Origin: a virus
Strand: one strand, 5' to 3'
Virus record (IMG/VR): IMGVR_UViG_3300027782_000072
Location: 1-64,000 of that record
DNA length: 64,000 nt
Part shown: positions 56,203 through 59,440 of the stretch, piece by piece
Position numbering within the stretch: position 1 is the stretch's first letter
How the letters are laid out: each line of letters begins with the position of its first letter
The notes under the pieces: generated by a model
Database searches by the model: none
Told to the model about the DNA's origin: nothing
The model's input: the letters and a program-made list of their open reading frames with translations, nothing else
Position numbers and translations under genes: made by a program

Positions 56203-56471
56203 AGGTATATTTTGGCTCAGATCTGCGCCGTTAAATCTACCTAACTTGTTCGCCCTTAGGTGTTGGCTACCGGCGCGTCGCTATTCAAGGTAAACCGCGC
56301 GTCGCTAAATATAGCTAACCGCGTCGCCCTATTTAATTGTTTCAATATATTAAGATTTTTGGCCCGCCTCTCGCTGGTGGTGACCAATGGGGGATCATGG
56401 GCGAGACACCGGCAGGCCGAACGCGTCGCCGGTGTCAAGTTCTTCTCTTTAATCCCTCCGCTCTGCTCTCC

Positions 56472-57095
56472 ATGCTCTCCGCTCTCCATGCTCTCCAGGG
56501 TGTCGAGGCCCTCGCCCTCGCTGCCGCCCGCATCTGGGCCGCCGCCGGTGAACTTCTCACCGCCGGAGCGATCCTATGGGCCCTTGATGCCCTCGCCCGA
56601 TCCATCCGCATCGCCTATTCCATGGGCCGCATTGCGGGCCGCCTGCTGTGGCCGGTTCTCCATGCCCTCGCGGCTGGTGGCCGGTGGTTCGCCTCCCATA
56701 TTGATTGGCCCACCGTGGCCGCCGTGGTGATTGATTGTCTCAAGGCCTTAGCCGTGCTCTGTTGGCTGGTGGTGGTCGAGGGCCGCCGCCTTCTCTTCTC
56801 CGCCTCCGCCGCCATGGGCCGCCGTTACGCTGCCGCCCTCGCCTCCGCTCCCTCCGCCTCGCCGGTGGTGGCTCCCTCGCTGCCGGTGGTGGTGGCCTCC
56901 GCTCCCTCCGCTCCCTCCGCTCCCTCCGCTCCCTCCGCTCCCTCCGCTCCCTTCGCTCCGCCCATCGCCCACCCTCTCGCTGTGGTGGCCGCCTCGCTTG
57001 AGGCCCTCACTTGTAAGGAGCTCCGGGCCCTCACCGGCACCCGCCGGAAACTACCTAAGGCCTCGCTGGTGGCCCTCGCCCTCGCCCTTGCTTAA
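56472..57095 (+). CDS. membrane protein with (SAP)n linker and C-terminal Rho-N/HeH-like motif
   Basis: Hydrophobic helices; 9-bp TCCGCTCCC tandem repeat; LTCKELRAL.G.RRKL.KA.LV. Confidence 0.6.
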   Translation: MLSALHALQGVEALALAAARIWAAAGELLTAGAILWALDALARSIRIAYSMGRIAGRLLWPVLHALAAGGRWFASHIDWPTVAAVVIDCLKALAVLCWLVVVEGRRLLFSASAAMGRRYAAALASAPSASPVVAPSLPVVVASAPSAPSAPSAPSAPSAPFAPPIAHPLAVVAASLEALTCKELRALTGTRRKLPKASLVALALALA

Positions 57096-57180
57096 TTGTA
57101 AAGAATTGTAACCATGGGGGCCGCCCGTGCTGGTGGCCTCCCTCGCCTGTGCCATGCTCTCCATGCCGGAGCGATCCGGC
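57095..57180 (+). promoter_or_regulatory. early promoter module with a perfect HLR1-type box
   Basis: Reverse complement GTTACAAT-TC-TTTACAAT; hairpin GCCGGA-GCGA-TCCGGC. Confidence 0.6.
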
Positions 57181-57208
57181 CCAACCGTCAACCGCTGCCC
57201 CGCTCTCC

Positions 57209-58336
57209 ATGGCCTCCGCCCTCGCCTCCGCTCCCTTCGCCCTCTCCCGCGATGATCGCTCCGCCTTCCGCTCCGCTGATGCTCCGGCCAAGGCCCACCT
57301 CGCCCGGTTCGGCCTGACCTTGGACGGGCTCCTCACCGTGGGGGCCTCCAATGCCAAGCTTGCCAAGGGCTCCGCCCTCGCCCGTGCTGTGATCCTTCAC
57401 CACCTACCGGCCCGCTCCCTTTCTCAAGCCGTCTATGGGGCCGCCGCAGGGCCCACCGCCCCTCGCTCTCGCATTGACGGGCTCGAAGCTCTCGCGATCC
57501 GCAATGAGATCGGCGGACTAGTGGGGGCCCATGATGGTTGCCCATGGGCCTCTGCCGGTTGTCGCTCTGGATGCCTCGCATGGGCGGGCCATGGGGGCAT
57601 CTCCACTACGGTCGCATCCTGCAGGGCCCGCCGAACCATGGCCTTTATTTACAATCCGGGTGGTTATGCTGTGGCTGTGCTGTGGGCGATTGCCCGCGAA
57701 TATAAGAAGGCCCAGGCCCAGGGCCTCCCCCTCGCGGTTCGCCTCCGTGGCACTGATGATCTCCCATGGCATGATCTGCGGTTCACTCTCTACGCTGACG
57801 AGGCCCGGGCCATGGCCCACCGTTACGGGCTGCCGGTAGCGCCGGGCCTTGGAACTACCATTCCAGAGGCCCTCGCCCTAGTCCCCGGCTTGGAGCCCTA
57901 CGAATACAGCAAGGCGCCCCTAGAGGGCCCCTATGGGCTCAGAGCACAACGGGCCGCCGGAGTTGACACCACCGCCTCCCTTGCTGCTGATCGCCCTCAA
58001 GGCCTCGCCCGTAGCCTTGAGGCCGTGGCTGCAGGGTTCCGCCTAGCAGTGCCTGCAGGGTTCCCCAAGAGTTGGGAGCTCCCCTCTGGTCTCCTTCTCC
58101 GGGCCGATAGCCTCTCTCCCGTAGTTCGCCTCGCCTGCCTCGATGGGGATGTGACGGATCATCGCTGGAACGATCCGCAAGGGCCGCAGGGCCTGGTTTG
58201 GGATGGCGTGGCTGTGATCTTGCGCACCAAACGCAGCGCTGGTGCTGGTGCCGCCTCCAAGGCCTTCTCCCTCTCGCCCGTGGTGGGAGAGTGGCAGGCC
58301 CTCGCTGGTGGTGGCTTCGCCCAGTGGGAGGCCTGA
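57209..58336 (+). CDS. GP88-like (radical-SAM-related) phage protein
   Basis: N.KL.K, CPWAS.GC...CL, VRL.GT.D, YEYSK, DGD..D.R..D motifs. Confidence 0.7.
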   Translation: MASALASAPFALSRDDRSAFRSADAPAKAHLARFGLTLDGLLTVGASNAKLAKGSALARAVILHHLPARSLSQAVYGAAAGPTAPRSRIDGLEALAIRNEIGGLVGAHDGCPWASAGCRSGCLAWAGHGGISTTVASCRARRTMAFIYNPGGYAVAVLWAIAREYKKAQAQGLPLAVRLRGTDDLPWHDLRFTLYADEARAMAHRYGLPVAPGLGTTIPEALALVPGLEPYEYSKAPLEGPYGLRAQRAAGVDTTASLAADRPQGLARSLEAVAAGFRLAVPAGFPKSWELPSGLLLRADSLSPVVRLACLDGDVTDHRWNDPQGPQGLVWDGVAVILRTKRSAGAGAASKAFSLSPVVGEWQALAGGGFAQWEA

Positions 58337-58339
58337 TCA

Positions 58340-58579
58340 GTGGGGCCTTCTCACTTTTCCGGAACGCGTAGGATTGTCCGCCTCGCCCTTCTCCGCTCTC
58401 CTCGCTGTGCTCCACTGGTGGGCGGTTACCGCCTCAAGGTGTGGCCTTCTCGCTCCGTGGGTCATCGTGATTCGCGGTCTCTCCTCCTCCGCCTCCCTGG
58501 TGGCCGCCTTCTCCGCCTTCTTTATCGCACCGCTACAACCACAGCCGTCAAGATCCGCCGCCTAGGGCTGGTGGACTAG
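58340..58579 (+). CDS. small Arg-rich hypothetical protein
   Basis: Same codon bias as other island genes; starts right after the upstream stop. Confidence 0.4.
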   Translation: MGPSHFSGTRRIVRLALLRSPRCAPLVGGYRLKVWPSRSVGHRDSRSLLLRLPGGRLLRLLYRTATTTAVKIRRLGLVD

Positions 58580-58638
58580 CTGCTCCACTTGGGCCCTTGA
58601 GGGCCCCTCTCCCTCTCCTCTCCTCTGCTCTCTTCTCC

Positions 58639-58938
58639 ATGGCCTCCGCTGCTCCCTTCTCTCCTCTCGCCTCCCGTGGTTCGGCGCTCCGCTCCGTTGG
58701 CCTCTCGCCCCATATCCTGCCGCCCTCGCCTTACCGCCTCCACGATGATGCTTCCGCCCATCGCCTCGCCTCTCCCGTGGCTGATCTGCTCGCCCAACGA
58801 TGGGCCTCCGTTGTGATCCGCCTAGGGCCTGACGCATTCAACGACTGGGCAGATAGGGCCCTGCCGGAGCTTGTGGCTACTAGTGGGGCCCTTGCTACGC
58901 TTCGCTGGCTACTAGCAGAGGGGCCCTGCGATGATTAA
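58639..58938 (+). CDS. hypothetical protein
   Basis: ATG after a pyrimidine-rich leader, like neighbouring genes. Confidence 0.55.
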   Translation: MASAAPFSPLASRGSALRSVGLSPHILPPSPYRLHDDASAHRLASPVADLLAQRWASVVIRLGPDAFNDWADRALPELVATSGALATLRWLLAEGPCDD

Positions 58939-59019
58939 CTTTTGTAACGATGGGGCCGCTAGTGGTTGACACTCTCGCCCTAGGGTTCATAATGGCCACA
59001 AGCCCGGAGCGATCCGGGC
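58931..59019 (+). promoter_or_regulatory. sigma70-type early promoter
   Basis: HLR1-like half site, TTGACA (58966)...CATAAT (58988), hairpin GCCCGGA-GCGA-TCCGGGC. Confidence 0.7.
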
Positions 59020-59048
59020 CGCCCTCCGCTCCCCTCCCCTCTCAAGCC

Positions 59049-59225
59049 ATGCTCTCTCTCTTCTCTCGCTTCCCCGGCCGCTGCTCCGCTCTGCTGGTCA
59101 CCCTCACCGGCTCCGCCCTACTGTGGTTTGTGGTTGATCTACAAGCTCAGGACCGCGCTCTTCTCCGGGCCTGTCAAGCCGGGCCCGATCCAGCCTCTTG
59201 TATGGTTCGCCTCTACGGTCGCTGA
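59049..59225 (+). CDS. small membrane protein
   Basis: TM helix followed by two Cys. Confidence 0.55.
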   Translation: MLSLFSRFPGRCSALLVTLTGSALLWFVVDLQAQDRALLRACQAGPDPASCMVRLYGR

Positions 59226-59440
59226 TCGCCCTAGGGCCCTCCCTGGGCCCTCTCCCTCTCCCTCTCCCCTCCGCTCCCTCTCCCTTGAAGCTAGTCAACC
59301 GCGCCGCCGTGATTAAAGCCTACCTAGAACTCTTGAGTGATAACCTAGCATCCTGCAATGATGCCGAATTGATCGATCTCATCGAGAATTATATGGGCGA
59401 ACCATGGGAGCTTATCAAACCCCGATGGTTCAATAGTTGA
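59198..59440 (+). CDS. hypothetical protein (start uncertain)
   Basis: ORF ends just before a terminator. Confidence 0.4.
   Translation: MYGSPLRSLIALGPSLGPLPLPLPSAPSPLKLVNRAAVIKAYLELLSDNLASCNDAELIDLIENYMGEPWELIKPRWFNS

Follow-up and report, generated by a model that had tools for sequence, protein, structure and literature searches.

What keeps three kilobases of a phage genome so unlike the rest in base composition? The window analyzed here is a stretch of 64,000 nucleotides, positions 1 to 64,000 of the IMG/VR virus record IMGVR_UViG_3300027782_000072. It belongs to an S-CBS4-like freshwater cyanosiphovirus genome of ~73 kb and ~48% GC, which encodes a tape measure, a J-like tail protein and a prohead protease, and whose portal is 65.6% identical to that of Synechococcus phage S-CBS4. 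The two ends of the contig share 153 nt, one of them mismatched, so that the map closes into a circle. The region 56,360–59,310 (here called the island) has 66% GC and 11% A.

Composition of the Island

A preliminary description of this DNA had pointed to an abrupt change in composition, and this was confirmed, with 57241–57300 having exactly 70% GC and 6 A. Over the span 56350–59300 GC was 0.662 (A.112, C.388, G.275, T.225), compared to a mean GC of.476 (sd.021, max.522) and a mean A of.261 (min.232) in 645 non-overlapping windows of the same length. The sharpest GC steps along the sequence were at 56360 and 59310, and the 200-nt GC peak of 0.77 was at 56800–56999, with an AT skew of -0.83.

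The reported dominance of certain codons was borne out by comparison with 30 backbone genes (island vs backbone: GCC 12.3 vs 2.4%, CTC 7.5 vs 1.0%, GCT 5.4 vs 3.2%, CGC 4.7 vs 1.4%, TCC 4.6 vs 1.4%). The recurrent words were likewise present: CTCCGC occurred 27 times and GCCCTC 19 times (0 and 3 times, respectively, on the other strand), whilst GGCC (73 vs 40.9 ± 5.2), GGGCCC (14 vs 5.1) and GATC (21 vs 12.8) exceeded their shuffled or expected counts. Diversity of 6-mers was indeed reduced, with 1250 distinct 6-mers vs 1545 ± 17 in dinucleotide shuffles (z = -20.5, vs -1.8 to -8.4 in 14 backbone windows). Alanine made up 20.5% of the encoded proteins, with a GARP fraction of.43 and a FYMINK fraction of.10 (.27 and.25 in the backbone).

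The Island Is the Coding Part of an Exchangeable Cassette

The island is the coding part of an exchangeable accessory cassette of ~3.45 kb (55,798–59,244), in which a repeat array of normal GC is followed by five genes on the same strand (Table 1). In the related locus L088 the flanks showed 86–90% DNA identity, with no homology between 55798 and 59244, and its GP88 protein was 43% identical. The L088 cassette contains repeats of the same kinds with different sequence, and the left array is a putative operator or iteron hub.

Table 1. Coordinates of the cassette features, with the basis of each assignment.
Feature	Position	Strand	Basis
Left part of cassette, normal GC, dense repeat array	55798–56396	.	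Repeat search; homology with L088 ends at 55797
Tandem repeat, five 21-nt units (left part)	55854–55957		
Three 17-nt palindromes, TAGTACAAATGTACTAC (left part)	56046–56108		
Three copies of ATAAGCnCAGCTTAT (left part)	56107–56170		
GCGCGTCGCTA repeats (left part)	56273–56330		
Promoter-like match	56182–56211		Consensus match only
Gene I1, 207 aa, Ala/Leu-rich, hydrophobic segments	56472–57095	+	Third-position substitutions vs L002
Conserved non-coding spacer: TTGTAAC motif, GC hairpins, CU leader	57096–57208	+	Comparison with L002
Gene I2, 375 aa, GP88 family, core island gene	57209–58336	+	Pfam, PHROGs; third-position substitutions vs L002
Gene I3, 79 aa, Arg-rich, basic	58340–58579	+	Third-position substitutions vs L002
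GGGCCC-UUGA-GGGCCC hairpin, then unpaired CU-rich leader to I4 ATG	58590–58638	+	Fold prediction, z +0.72
Gene I4, 99 aa	58639–58938	+	Third-position substitutions vs L002
Sigma-70-like promoter match, TTGACA-16-CATAAT	58966–58993	+	11/12 consensus positions; consensus match only
Gene I5, 58 aa, hydrophobic N-terminus	59049–59225	+	C-terminal peptide kept in L002
Right cassette junction	59245–59506	+	blastn: L088 backbone homology resumes, 90% DNA identity
Small backbone gene of normal GC, start TTG 59285 or GTG 59309	59285–59440	+	95% aa identity to L088
Predicted terminators	59463–59486; 59571		

Comparison with L002 guided the gene models. I1 shares 82% amino acid identity with its L002 counterpart, and its start at ATG 56472 is kept there, the upstream ATG 56397 being out of frame in L002; a 9-nt tandem array at 56896–56959 encodes an (APS)n repeat. 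I3 is in frame with GP88, and its GTG start lies 3 nt past the stop of that gene. Substitutions peaked on the third codon position of I3 and not on that of an overlapping frame (58242–58565), and amino acid identity was 86% for I3 vs 67% for that frame. I4 was 91% identical. The C-terminus of I5 (...AQDRALL.AC.AGP.PA.C..RLYGR) is conserved in L002, its DNA being too poorly alignable to give a clear codon-phase signal.

Genes in the island are preceded by a GC hairpin and then by an unpaired CU tract up to the ATG, in keeping with the pyrimidine-tract leaders described earlier. The spacer upstream of I2 had 95–96% identity to L002, above the adjoining coding DNA, and its fold was no more stable than shuffles (z = -0.87). 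It contains a CCGGA-GCGA-TCCGG hairpin at 57166–57179, and the same 14-mer recurs at 59004–59017, downstream of the promoter match preceding I5. The motif T[GT]T[AT]A[CT]NANGGGG has four matches in the whole 73-kb genome, at 53894 and 54342 before neighboring genes and at 57107 and 58943 inside the island, so that a module is shared with the neighbors as had been suggested. After this motif the neighboring genes have a hairpin with a T-run terminator, and the island hairpins lack the T-run.

No Pfam family was reported for I1 (E ≤ 1), I3 or I4. GP88 was the only family detected when the cassette was searched with Pfam, PHROGs, NCBIfam and PADLOC; families of repressors, Cro or initiators were not among the results, and PADLOC had no meaningful match.

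The Core Gene Encodes a GP88-Family Protein

I2 matched Pfam PF17338 with 27.9–28.0 bits (gathering cut-off 24.4; only profile positions 36–115 of 230 aligned) and phrog_1617 with an E-value of 7e-22, and its structural rows in the Atlas were GP88 clusters (TM 0.63–0.86). In an alignment of 35 sequences, extending down to 25% identity, C111, C118 and C122 were invariant, forming a CX6CX3C motif, as were R139, R178, Y231, Y233, T255, S257, D317 and R319. The AlphaFold2 model had a mean pLDDT of 92.8. The best 21 VIA-align rows for this model had Z 6.8–4.7, values which, being <8, may reflect only a common arrangement or shared barrel (151–216 residues aligned, rmsd 3.9–6.5); part of these 21 entries we take to be radical-SAM enzymes, and the others are so titled. 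Spore photoproduct lyase, a radical-SAM DNA-repair enzyme, was at rank 3 (Z 5.7). The predicted fold of I2 may be radical-SAM-like. The canonical radical-SAM motif CX3CX2C was absent from I2, which has CX6CX3C instead; Pfam did not report the Radical_SAM family at E ≤ 1, Foldseek of the model gave nothing at E ≤ 0.001, and a PDB sequence search gave no meaningful match (best E 0.77).

I2 resembles the GP88 family in its sequence match and in the three invariant cysteines common across the family, of which 172 of 186 tblastn records were Mycobacterium phages. Members in cluster-A mycobacteriophages are, for example, the products of genes 84–89 at the right end, and here too the gene sits among small genes of unknown function, plausibly early. 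The present subfamily differs in length (~375 aa vs ~230–290 in the family), in a ~45-residue insertion between strand 1 and the cysteine motif, and in its GC/A anomaly. The GP88 genes of HTVC024P, HMO-2011, Katalie136 and Sansa match the GC of their own genomes (4/4 other lineages checked), and so the composition is not intrinsic to the family; pelagiphage GP88 genes have 42% A. As a lead for early expression, GP88 homologs lie 0.4–2.4 kb from the record end and point inward in cluster-A mycobacteriophages, two pelagiphages and HMO-2011.

The Composition Persists Between Deeply Diverged Alleles

Four-fold sites of GP88 in the present genome and in L003–L010 were 36–41% identical, vs ~34% by chance, and all of these orthologs kept C at.42–.54 and A at.05–.13. 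As these sites are saturated and yet unchanged in composition, the composition is probably an equilibrium and not a relic. Of 59 loci for which distant flank of 1 kb or more was present, some of them near-duplicates, 54 had a GP88 gene at least 0.08 GC above the backbone (mean +0.143, backbone range 0.39–0.64), and island GC tracked backbone GC with an offset (r = 0.43).

Exchange at this locus is also evident from L014, where GP88 is 93% identical but RNR 65%. At least three allele classes of the cassette exist, deeply diverged from one another, and they recombine between backbones at one locus. In a GP88 tree made by quick search, 13 of 14 alleles from high-GC backbones fell in one 18-row clade, and the 21-row clade holding the present allele came entirely from mid-GC backbones. 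The backbone-GC label changed 4 times on this tree, compared to 12.5 in shuffles (0/500 as low), and this clustering argues against a steady supply of new alleles from phages of high GC. An island of this kind is absent from S-CBS4 (max 500-nt GC 0.60), which has no GP88 match either; it lacks the whole 55.1–61.2 kb segment, and its homolog of the gene at 54788 abuts RNR across the record junction.

Judged by these comparisons, the 3-kb five-gene block has kept its GC-rich, adenine-poor make-up over long evolutionary time, which agrees with the earlier view that it is no recent foreign insert and calls for a cause other than recent transfer or restriction-site avoidance.

Codon Positions and Strand Bias

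The third codon positions of the island look host-optimal. The shift in RSCU from backbone to island correlated with that seen in the capsid genes of the phage itself (r = 0.49, p = 1e-4) and with that of an rpoB-like gene from a cyanobacterial MAG of 66% GC (r = 0.77, p = 3e-12). This host proxy is a single gene from a single MAG, whose bin includes a contig of a related phage. GC3 was.64–.72, vs.89 in the host-like rpoB, and the present allele class prefers GAT, CAT, AAT, and CTC over the host-like CTG. However, A was.11 and.15 at codon positions 1 and 2, compared to.30/.29 in the backbone,.27/.29 in the capsid genes and.22/.32 in the host-like rpoB. Codon optimization cannot explain this equally strong depletion of A, which has reshaped the proteins.

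On the sense strand, A was low and C high in all allele classes (A 0.09–0.15, C 0.36–0.43), at all codon positions and in the spacers (A.08–.16, C.37–.53 in the island). From backbone to island C3 rises from.24 to.46 and G3 from.19 to only.23, class C alleles have T at.24–.27 and G at.21–.24, and pyrimidine-ending codons are preferred, T-ending ones included. The shared feature is thus low A with high C, not high G+C, because C3 rises, G3 barely does and T is kept.

What Holds the Composition

The reading we prefer, tentatively, is that the cassette is an early accessory operon that diversifies fast, and that its composition is held by selection on its sense strand or on its transcript. The low-A, high-C strand would be an equilibrium state maintained by such selection, and neither the leftover of a recent transfer nor a device against restriction enzymes. 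The cassette would act as an early operon dependent on unmodified host machinery, with a probable involvement in host interaction. It may be tuned for immediate expression in high-GC picocyanobacteria, the presumed hosts, by means of host-optimal codons in which A is avoided and the last base is mostly a pyrimidine, of CU leaders lacking an SD, and of A/U-poor messages that should resist AU-directed decay. Biased spacers, the conserved spacer 57096–57208 and the unpaired CU leaders are transcript-level features that we count for this reading. No terminator-like site was found between the island and the gene at 59285–59440, which is therefore probably co-transcribed with it; as that gene has normal composition, the bias follows the cassette and not the transcription unit. 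The locus was found in no RNA run.

We consider it unlikely that the avoidance of adenine is an adaptation in its own right. In that case the operon would be hardened against an agent working via A in the message or via T in the template strand; candidates would be host RNases or toxins directed at A, silencing proteins that prefer AT, and UV thymine lesions that block transcription of the template. Low A is the one feature common to all allele classes, at all codon positions and in spacers; T makes up only 11% of the template strand and AA occurs 54 times in 2.9 kb. The locus has deep allelic diversity, as would be expected under host-interaction pressure, and spore photoproduct lyase ranks high among the structural matches to GP88, but at a Z that may reflect only the shared barrel. 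The agent, moreover, is hypothetical, and PADLOC gave no meaningful match. Purine-purine dinucleotides on the sense strand were not under-represented given composition (AA 1.50, GG 1.17, GA 1.06, AG 1.02), ACA was absent from the 14 most under-represented trinucleotides of the island, and the A-rich GP88 genes of pelagiphages also speak against it.

Horizontal transfer of the cassette from high-GC phages or hosts, followed by partial amelioration or repeated replacement, appears improbable. It would account for the sharp boundaries, of which the right one coincides with a recombination junction, for the demonstrable exchange among backbones and for related alleles in backbones of 58–64% GC; GC3 also falls below the GC1-based prediction of the Muto-Osawa and Lawrence-Ochman relations, as in ameliorating genes. 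Yet syntenic alleles in mid-GC backbones have reached synonymous saturation with composition unchanged, and the quick tree separates their 21-allele clade from the alleles of high-GC backbones. The island is richer still in those high-GC backbones (L091, 0.58–0.63 outside and 0.71–0.80 inside), and its GC2, at.59, is above the values of all the ordinary donor genes that were checked (rpoB.41, Sansa GP88.42). Scans of genome contigs found no chromosomal copy, only 5 MAG contigs with 43–58% identity.

Less probable again is GC-biased gene conversion, in which biased heteroduplex repair at a recombination hot spot drives the cassette GC-rich. In its favor, the cassette recombines as a unit at conserved junctions, genes for a Sak annealing protein and a PD-(D/E)XK nuclease are present in the phage, all codon positions and spacers are shifted, and island GC tracks backbone GC. 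The shift is strand-specific, however, with C3 nearly doubling and G3 hardly moving; class C alleles keep their T and low G, T-ending codons are among the preferred ones, and the steps at both ends are abrupt and not graded.

The preliminary description had proposed first-injected DNA, with low k-mer diversity to avoid restriction sites and tolerance of host-methylated GGCC and GATC. The low diversity and the excess of both tetramers stood, and GP88 homologs do lie at record ends in other phages, but the circular contig map has no defined terminus. Palindromes in the island totaled what composition predicts (4-mers 197 vs 195.6 ± 12; 6-mers 52 vs 51.7 ± 6.9), and six-mer palindromes were denser than in the backbone (17.9 vs 11.0 per kb). 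The backbone is nearly purged of 23 six-mer palindromes (19 vs 239.6 ± 14.5 expected, 0.08×). In the island the same set was also depleted beyond composition (11 vs 26.7 ± 5.6, 0.41×; 0/300 shuffles as low), about five times more weakly than elsewhere, and its density was 14 times that of the backbone (3.79 vs 0.27 per kb), where island-sized windows hold at most 3 such sites. ACGCGT (twice), CCCGGG and TCCGGA occur in the island and 0 times in the other 70 kb. With the genome strongly purged and the island purged least of all, the island is very improbably a product of restriction avoidance, and we rejected that cause.

Comparison With Known Systems

Phage morons and mosaic accessory modules were reportedly described by Hendrix, Juhala and colleagues, and when a moron has an unusual composition, this is read as evidence that it arrived recently. 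The cassette resembles a moron in lying between conserved backbone genes, in its absence at the same place in S-CBS4 and in a composition unlike its surroundings; its promoter-like and terminator-like consensus matches may be signals of its own. It differs in that this composition lasts through synonymous saturation and across ~60 related loci, and in having several genes, a repeat array and deep alleles at one locus. A moron-type recent acquisition was rejected, given the saturated four-fold sites between orthologous islands.

In lambdoid immunity and replication cassettes, arrays of repeated binding sites are swapped as a block with adjacent genes. The present cassette likewise combines a repeat array with genes exchanged between otherwise similar genomes, and its alleles are far older than their flanks (86–90% DNA vs 43% amino acid identity for GP88), but no repressor, Cro or initiator family was detected in it. 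We know of no compositional anomaly in the lambdoid cassettes. The pre-early, first-step-transfer region of T5 and the early region of T7 contain small genes transcribed by host polymerase; the cassette is similar in grouping small genes, with a plausible role in counter-defence, and in that members of the family lie at the genome ends of other phages. It showed no homology to the early genes of T5 or T7.

T7-like cyanopodoviruses are reported to adapt in GC and codon usage to their hosts over the whole genome (PMC3152331). The island is alike in its synonymous shift toward host-preferred codons. It differs in that only 3 kb are shifted, in a genome that elsewhere is 18 GC points lower, and in that non-synonymous positions and non-coding spacers are included.

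A Co-oriented Octamer in the Island

GCTGGTGG occurred 7 times on the + strand and 0 times on the - strand within 56373–58567, compared to 0.15–1.33 expected under Markov orders 1–3 and 2.38 in synonymous shuffles (max 5 in 1000); under Markov order 4 the expectation was 3.77 (P = 0.097). It is thus co-oriented and over-represented, as the octamer of a Chi-site cluster that attenuates RecBCD would be. The cluster was found only in allele class A, in 2 of 41 islands including the present one. Cyanobacterial MAG G001, which has a RecC match, contained GCTGGTGG 1245 times vs 146 for a reversed control; the codon-context control CCTGGTGG occurred 951 times, and most of the excess in G001 is therefore attributable to CTG-GTG codon usage.

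Composition of the island

In 1-kb steps the GC content of the window stays at 0.41-0.54 throughout, save at 56-59 kb, where it is 0.59, 0.67 and 0.65; the steepest steps lie at 56360 and 59310. At 200-nt resolution it peaks at 0.77 at 56800-56999, with an AT skew of -0.83, and the example chosen in the preliminary description (57241-57300, 70% GC and 6 A) proved correct. The + strand over this island (56350-59300) contains A.112, C.388, G.275 and T.225. Among 645 non-overlapping windows of the same length, GC was.476 ±.021 with a maximum of.522, and A always made up at least 23%.

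The low complexity of the island exceeds what its composition gives. The reduced k-mer diversity noticed by eye was borne out by a count of 1250 distinct 6-mers, against 1545 ± 17 in dinucleotide-preserving shuffles (z = -20.5; -1.8 to -8.4 for 14 windows treated alike from the backbone, the rest of the genome). Its words are strand-specific, CTCCGC occurring 27 times and CCTCGC 26 times with no reverse complement of either, and the frequent words GCCCTGGC and GCCCTCGC are merely Ala-Leu-Ala codons.

Every codon position has raised GC (.72/.59/.69; backbone roughly.54/.43/.45), and the non-coding spacers are shifted likewise (A.08-.16, C.37-.53). By codon position, adenine stands at.11/.15/.07 in the island and at.30/.29/.22 across 28 backbone genes. 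For the two capsid genes it is.27/.29/.11, and for an rpoB-like gene of G001.22/.32/.04; G001, a cyanobacterial MAG of 66% GC that was reached through a related phage contig binned with it, served as host proxy. The island proteins contain 20.5% Ala and, compared with the backbone, have GARP at.43 vs.27, FYMINK at.10 vs.25 and R/(R+K) at.81 vs.53.

The phage and its relative S-CBS4

The full record comprises 73,274 nt, the window being its first 64 kb, and was called complete by CheckV. It is labelled linear; its ends (1-153 and 73122-73274) overlap by 153 nt with one mismatch, within a gene, which makes the assembly map circular. PHROGs matches included a tape-measure protein, a J-like central tail fibre, minor tail proteins and a prohead protease, and Pfam matches included a portal, a primase-helicase, a Sak annealing protein, a PD-(D/E)XK nuclease, ThyX, a dCTP deaminase-like protein and both RNR subunits. 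Over its full length the portal shares 65.6% identity with that of Synechococcus phage S-CBS4 (host Synechococcus sp. CB0101); TerL shares 68% and the RNR large subunit 74%, identities that mark the phage as an S-CBS4-like cyanosiphovirus. The RNR large-subunit ORF (61299-62756) has just 485 aa and matches only the first 99 of the 523 positions of the Pfam barrel profile, and it is still 74% identical to the S-CBS4 rnr.

S-CBS4 has 50.8% GC and no 500-nt window above 0.60, and no S-CBS4 homologue of the island's GP88-family gene (PF17338) was found among 186 tblastn records. Its homologue of gene 54788 adjoins RNR across the record junction, so S-CBS4 lacks anything matching 55.1-61.2 kb. That homologue stops at the final bases of the S-CBS4 record and RNR begins at 316; the record was thus opened exactly where the window has the cassette described below and about 3 kb more of small genes.

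Anatomy of the island

To call coding frames, 56.2-59.6 kb was aligned to the closest relative, L002, and substitutions were scored per codon phase. The pattern clearly indicates that four frames, I1 to I4, are coding; a fifth, I5, has a C-terminal peptide conserved in L002. The GTG start of I3 lies 3 nt past the TGA stop of GP88 in the same frame (58334-58342), an arrangement that could reflect translational coupling or read-through.

Features of the island and its surroundings
Feature	Position	Strand	Description
Repeat array	55854-56330		Four families, directly upstream of the genes, beside a 36%-GC stretch
I1	56472-57095	+	207 aa; codon-phase substitutions vs L002
I2 (GP88)	57209-58336	+	375 aa; codon-phase substitutions vs L002
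I3	58340-58579	+	79 aa, basic; codon-phase substitutions vs L002
I4	58639-58938	+	99 aa; codon-phase substitutions vs L002
Candidate promoter	58966-58993	+	Sigma-70-type, TTGACA-16-CATAAT; good consensus match
I5	59049-59225	+	58 aa; C-terminal peptide conserved in L002
Terminator-like sites	59463, 59571		Genome's usual GGGGCC-loop-GGCCCC-TTTT type

The spacer 57096-57208 has 95-96% identity with L002, above that of the coding DNA on either side. It shares a TTGTAAC...GGGG motif with the spacer before I5, and the two also have perfect copies of the 14-mer CCGGAGCGATCCGG, which could fold into a hairpin with a GCGA loop. Ahead of each gene a GGGCCC-type hairpin is predicted, followed by an unpaired CU tract up to the ATG. 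None of four leaders and spacers folded was stabler than shuffles (z -0.98 to +0.72), and Rfam gave no match at E<=0.1 within 53000-61500. Nearly all terminator-like sites here (53903, 54351, 59463, 59571 and 61301) have a GGGGCC-loop-GGCCCC stem and then T-runs; the island stems are the same without the T-run, and CU tracts come after them instead.

The repeat array upstream of the genes consists of five 21-nt tandem units, three 17-nt palindromes, three 15-nt ATAAGCnCAGCTTAT palindromes and three GC-rich GCGCGTCGCTA repeats; we read it as an operator or iteron hub, and it could also be a replication origin. No NCBIfam family was found for any island protein, Pfam at E<=1 returned nothing for I1, I3, I4 or the small proteins of the class B islands introduced below, and the sole PADLOC row, for I1, was sub-threshold (E 0.006).

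An exchangeable cassette with deep allele classes

Locus L088 aligns with the window as far as 55797 (86% DNA identity) and again from 59245 on (90%); between these points there is no alignment. Its flanking proteins are 84-95% identical to those of the window, its GP88 just 43%. The layout of its cassette is the same, with like kinds of repeats of different sequence and then pyrimidine-rich genes including GP88. The converse holds for L014, the contig of L002, where GP88 is 93% identical to that of the window, RNR 65% and gene 60605 64%. GP88 identity to the window falls into three classes (93%, 56-69% and 42-53%), and backbone genes are about equally diverged in each (RNR large subunit 60-77%, TerL 66-74%). 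These mismatches between flank and GP88 identity indicate that 55,798-59,244 acts as an allelic cassette recombining among backbones. The right GC step (59310) is about 65 nt from the cassette junction at 59245; the left one (56360) falls within the cassette, at the start of the genes.

Deep allele classes A, B and C could be distinguished, the window and L002 belonging to A and L088 to C. Among 19 islands from all classes, A (.09-.15) and C (.36-.43) were held while G (.21-.34) and T (.13-.27) traded off, so that the common feature is low sense-strand A and high C, not high G+C. Codon tables showed host-like codons in class B (CTG, GGC and CAG favoured) and, in classes A and C, a preference for pyrimidine-ending codons including T-ending ones, with CTC for Leu. 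An oligomer common to the islands of all allele classes was sought, and none was found.

The class C cassette has an extra 188-aa ORF (L088:5702-6268) with no Pfam family and with an HPPC-type motif, typical of cytosine-5 DNA methyltransferases. In the contigs of four DNA runs, which are fragmentary, X5 and partly X3 span the flanks, and not 57.6-59.6 kb, at an identity of at least 90%; we give this pattern no evidential weight.

Persistence of the composition

An island of deviant composition in a phage or bacterial genome is routinely taken for a recent transfer. The preliminary description had argued from promoter modules that this one is no fresh insert, and its orthologues agree. All nine loci of a first search have an island of 0.62-0.69 GC, A-poor on the GP88 strand, between flanks of about 0.45-0.50. 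GP88 of the window and of L003-L010 share 61-66% protein identity; at conserved codons their four-fold sites are 36-41% identical, against a chance expectation from composition of about 34%, and contain C.42-.54 and A.05-.13 in all. Saturation with the composition kept means that the gene is not ameliorating, as it would long since have drifted towards the backbone.

Phages of the S-CBS4 type with the island are present in many freshwater viromes. From the 149 relatives of a wider search, 80 loci were kept and 73 tabulated, 7 being dropped as duplicates of earlier loci or fragments. GC was compared in the 59 loci with at least 1 kb of flank located more than 3 kb from the gene. GP88 was at least 0.08 GC above the distant flank in 54 of these 59, several of which are near-identical and so not independent (mean difference +0.143, range +0.02 to +0.23; backbones 0.39-0.64). 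In a quick maximum-likelihood tree of 54 GP88 sequences with SH-aLRT support, 13 of 14 alleles from backbones of at least 0.57 GC fell within one 18-row clade, and the 21-row clade of the window consisted wholly of mid-GC backbones. The backbone label changed 4 times on the tree, against 12.5 in shuffles, none of 500 being that low; this clustering argues against steady re-import from high-GC phages.

Species genomes numbering 185,579 were scanned twice for GP88: the single protein had no match, and the alignment matched just 5 MAG contigs (43-58% identity), with no chromosomal cyanobacterial copy or other chromosomal source. The island DNA had no similarity match among 50,697 phage records. 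High GC is not intrinsic to the family: an island-like excess was seen in 0 of 4 other lineages, where GP88 and its locus have.278 and.289 (Pelagibacter phage HTVC024P),.476 and.433 (HMO-2011, the biggest gap at about 4 GC points),.633 and.629 (mycobacteriophage Katalie136) and.659 and.659 (Caulobacter phage Sansa).

Forces acting on the composition

The island stays 15-20 GC points off the backbone through synonymous saturation, in dozens of viruses and several deep alleles. This lasting A-poor state indicates that the genome-wide mutational equilibrium can be overridden by a local force specific to one strand, most likely selection, and such a force can reshape protein composition too. Selection on the sense strand of the cassette or on its transcript is the explanation we favour. 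Were its agent known, early or counter-defence operons of uncultured phages could be recognised by a new sequence signature, and the widespread, uncharacterised GP88 family would have a first functional handle.

Translational selection for the codons of a high-GC host is supported, for third positions only, by the synonymous shift of the island relative to the backbone. This shift correlates with that of the capsid genes of the phage itself (r = 0.49, p = 1e-4) and with that of the rpoB-like gene of the MAG (r = 0.77, p = 3e-12). Host codons do not account for positions 1 and 2, for the spacers, for a GC3 of only.64-.72 in the island, against.89 in the host-like gene, or for the preference of class A for GAT, CAT and AAT.

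GC-biased conversion, which would raise GC in a recombination-prone cassette, fits in part; the shift is, however, strand-specific, C3 rising from.24 to.46 and G3 just from.19 to.23.

Avoidance of restriction sites had been proposed in the preliminary description as the reason for the anomaly. Depletion beyond composition is present for the 23 rarest backbone palindromes (at most 3 copies each), of which the island has 11 sites against 26.7 ± 5.6 expected, none of 300 shuffles being that low. It is far weaker than in the backbone, where the same set totals 19 against 239.6 ± 14.5 expected, and where thirteen 6-bp palindromes (ACCGGT, ACGCGT, CAGCTG, CCCGGG, CCGCGG, CGATCG, CTCGAG, GACGTC, GCCGGC, GCGCGC, GTATAC, GTCGAC and TCCGGA), with about 12-19 copies expected each, have none in the 70 kb outside 56400-59300. 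The density of the set is 3.79 per kb in the island and 0.27 per kb in the backbone, island-size windows of which hold at most 3 sites. Avoidance as the cause is therefore not supported, since the island is richer in sites than any other part of the genome. Its palindromes overall match shuffles (4-mers 197 vs 195.6 ± 12; 6-mers 52 vs 51.7 ± 6.9). GGCC and GATC, which the preliminary description took to be tolerated, are abundant (73 vs 40.9 and 21 vs 12.8 in shuffles); CCATGG (10 vs 1.4) and GGGCCC (14 vs 5.1) are also enriched, and GCGC is scarce (6 vs 29.6). A site-rich island in a purged genome makes its composition a restriction liability, so that the maintaining force must outweigh this cost; cyanosiphovirus backbones can evidently be near-free of many 6-bp palindromes yet tolerate a site-rich cassette.

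A small backbone gene upstream of the terminator (59285-59440), and so probably co-transcribed with the island, has normal composition; the bias thus tracks the cassette and not the transcription unit. Purine-purine steps in the island were not depleted past composition in a dinucleotide test of the idea that UV is involved, and a check for ACA and mRNA-interferase motifs found no special depletion. Single-strand deamination and transcription-linked mutation bias were set aside on theoretical grounds, as either should lower C on the exposed strand, where C is enriched.

The cassette is a moron-like allelic accessory unit whose A-poor sense strand is most likely maintained by selection. This kind of object is known; new are the lasting anomaly and its reach into non-synonymous positions. 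The search listings and the opening lines of abstracts that we consulted contained no account of such an island or of GP88 function.

A co-oriented octamer in class A

The octamer GCTGGTGG, the E. coli Chi site, is found in seven copies within 56373-58567, all of them on the + strand; elsewhere the genome has five on + and two on -. Expected numbers are 0.15, 0.45 and 1.33 under Markov orders 1-3, 3.77 under order 4 (P 0.097), and 2.38 under synonymous-codon shuffling (maximum 5 in 1000). The copies lie in several reading frames, one of them in a spacer; five of the seven are conserved in L002, whose island has 10 in total. As a cluster the octamer is confined to class A, 38 islands of other classes having 0 or 1 copy each. 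In the host proxy G001, for which RecC gave a match, the octamer reaches 1245 copies and its reversed control 146; a codon-context control, CCTGGTGG, reached 951, which attributes most of the excess in G001 to codon usage.

The GP88 protein

An alignment of 35 GP88 sequences showed an invariant CX6CX3C motif (C111, C118 and C122), together with invariant K50, R139, R178, Y231, Y233, T255, S257, D317 and R319. The AlphaFold2 model was confident (mean pLDDT 92.8, pTM 0.91). A Foldseek search of the PDB with this model returned nothing at E<=0.001, and a PDB sequence search gave no meaningful match. In an exhaustive VIA-align search the top 21 structures were radical-SAM enzymes, among them NifB, spore photoproduct lyase, PFL activase, lipoyl synthase, QueE, viperin and MoaA, at Z 6.8-4.7, where values below 8 perhaps reflect a mere shared arrangement; ordinary TIM-barrel hydrolases followed from rank 22 onward. 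GP88 has no canonical CX3CX2C motif and no Radical_SAM Pfam match, and on the modelled structure we call it radical-SAM-like in fold only.

In L5-type phages the right end is the first part to be transcribed. GP88 homologues lie 0.4-2.4 kb from the record end and point inward in cluster-A mycobacteriophages, HTVC024P, HTVC120P and HMO-2011.

A joint reading, which we regard as rather improbable, would combine selected avoidance of sense-strand A in an immediate-early, often exchanged operon with a GP88 enzyme acting on nucleic acid and with protection by Chi. The template (11% T) and messages (11% A) of the cassette would stay usable when the remaining phage genome or transcriptome is impaired, be it by UV thymine lesions, AT-directed silencing or A-directed RNases. 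GP88, as a non-canonical radical-SAM-like enzyme, would then rescue the infection by acting on nucleic acid, for example through lesion repair or base modification, and the 7-10 co-oriented GCTGGTGG copies of class A would further shield the DNA from RecBCD.

In Sansa and Katalie136 the GP88 homologue follows an annotated DNA methyltransferase gene directly or is close to one, an arrangement that may reflect a functional link to DNA modification.
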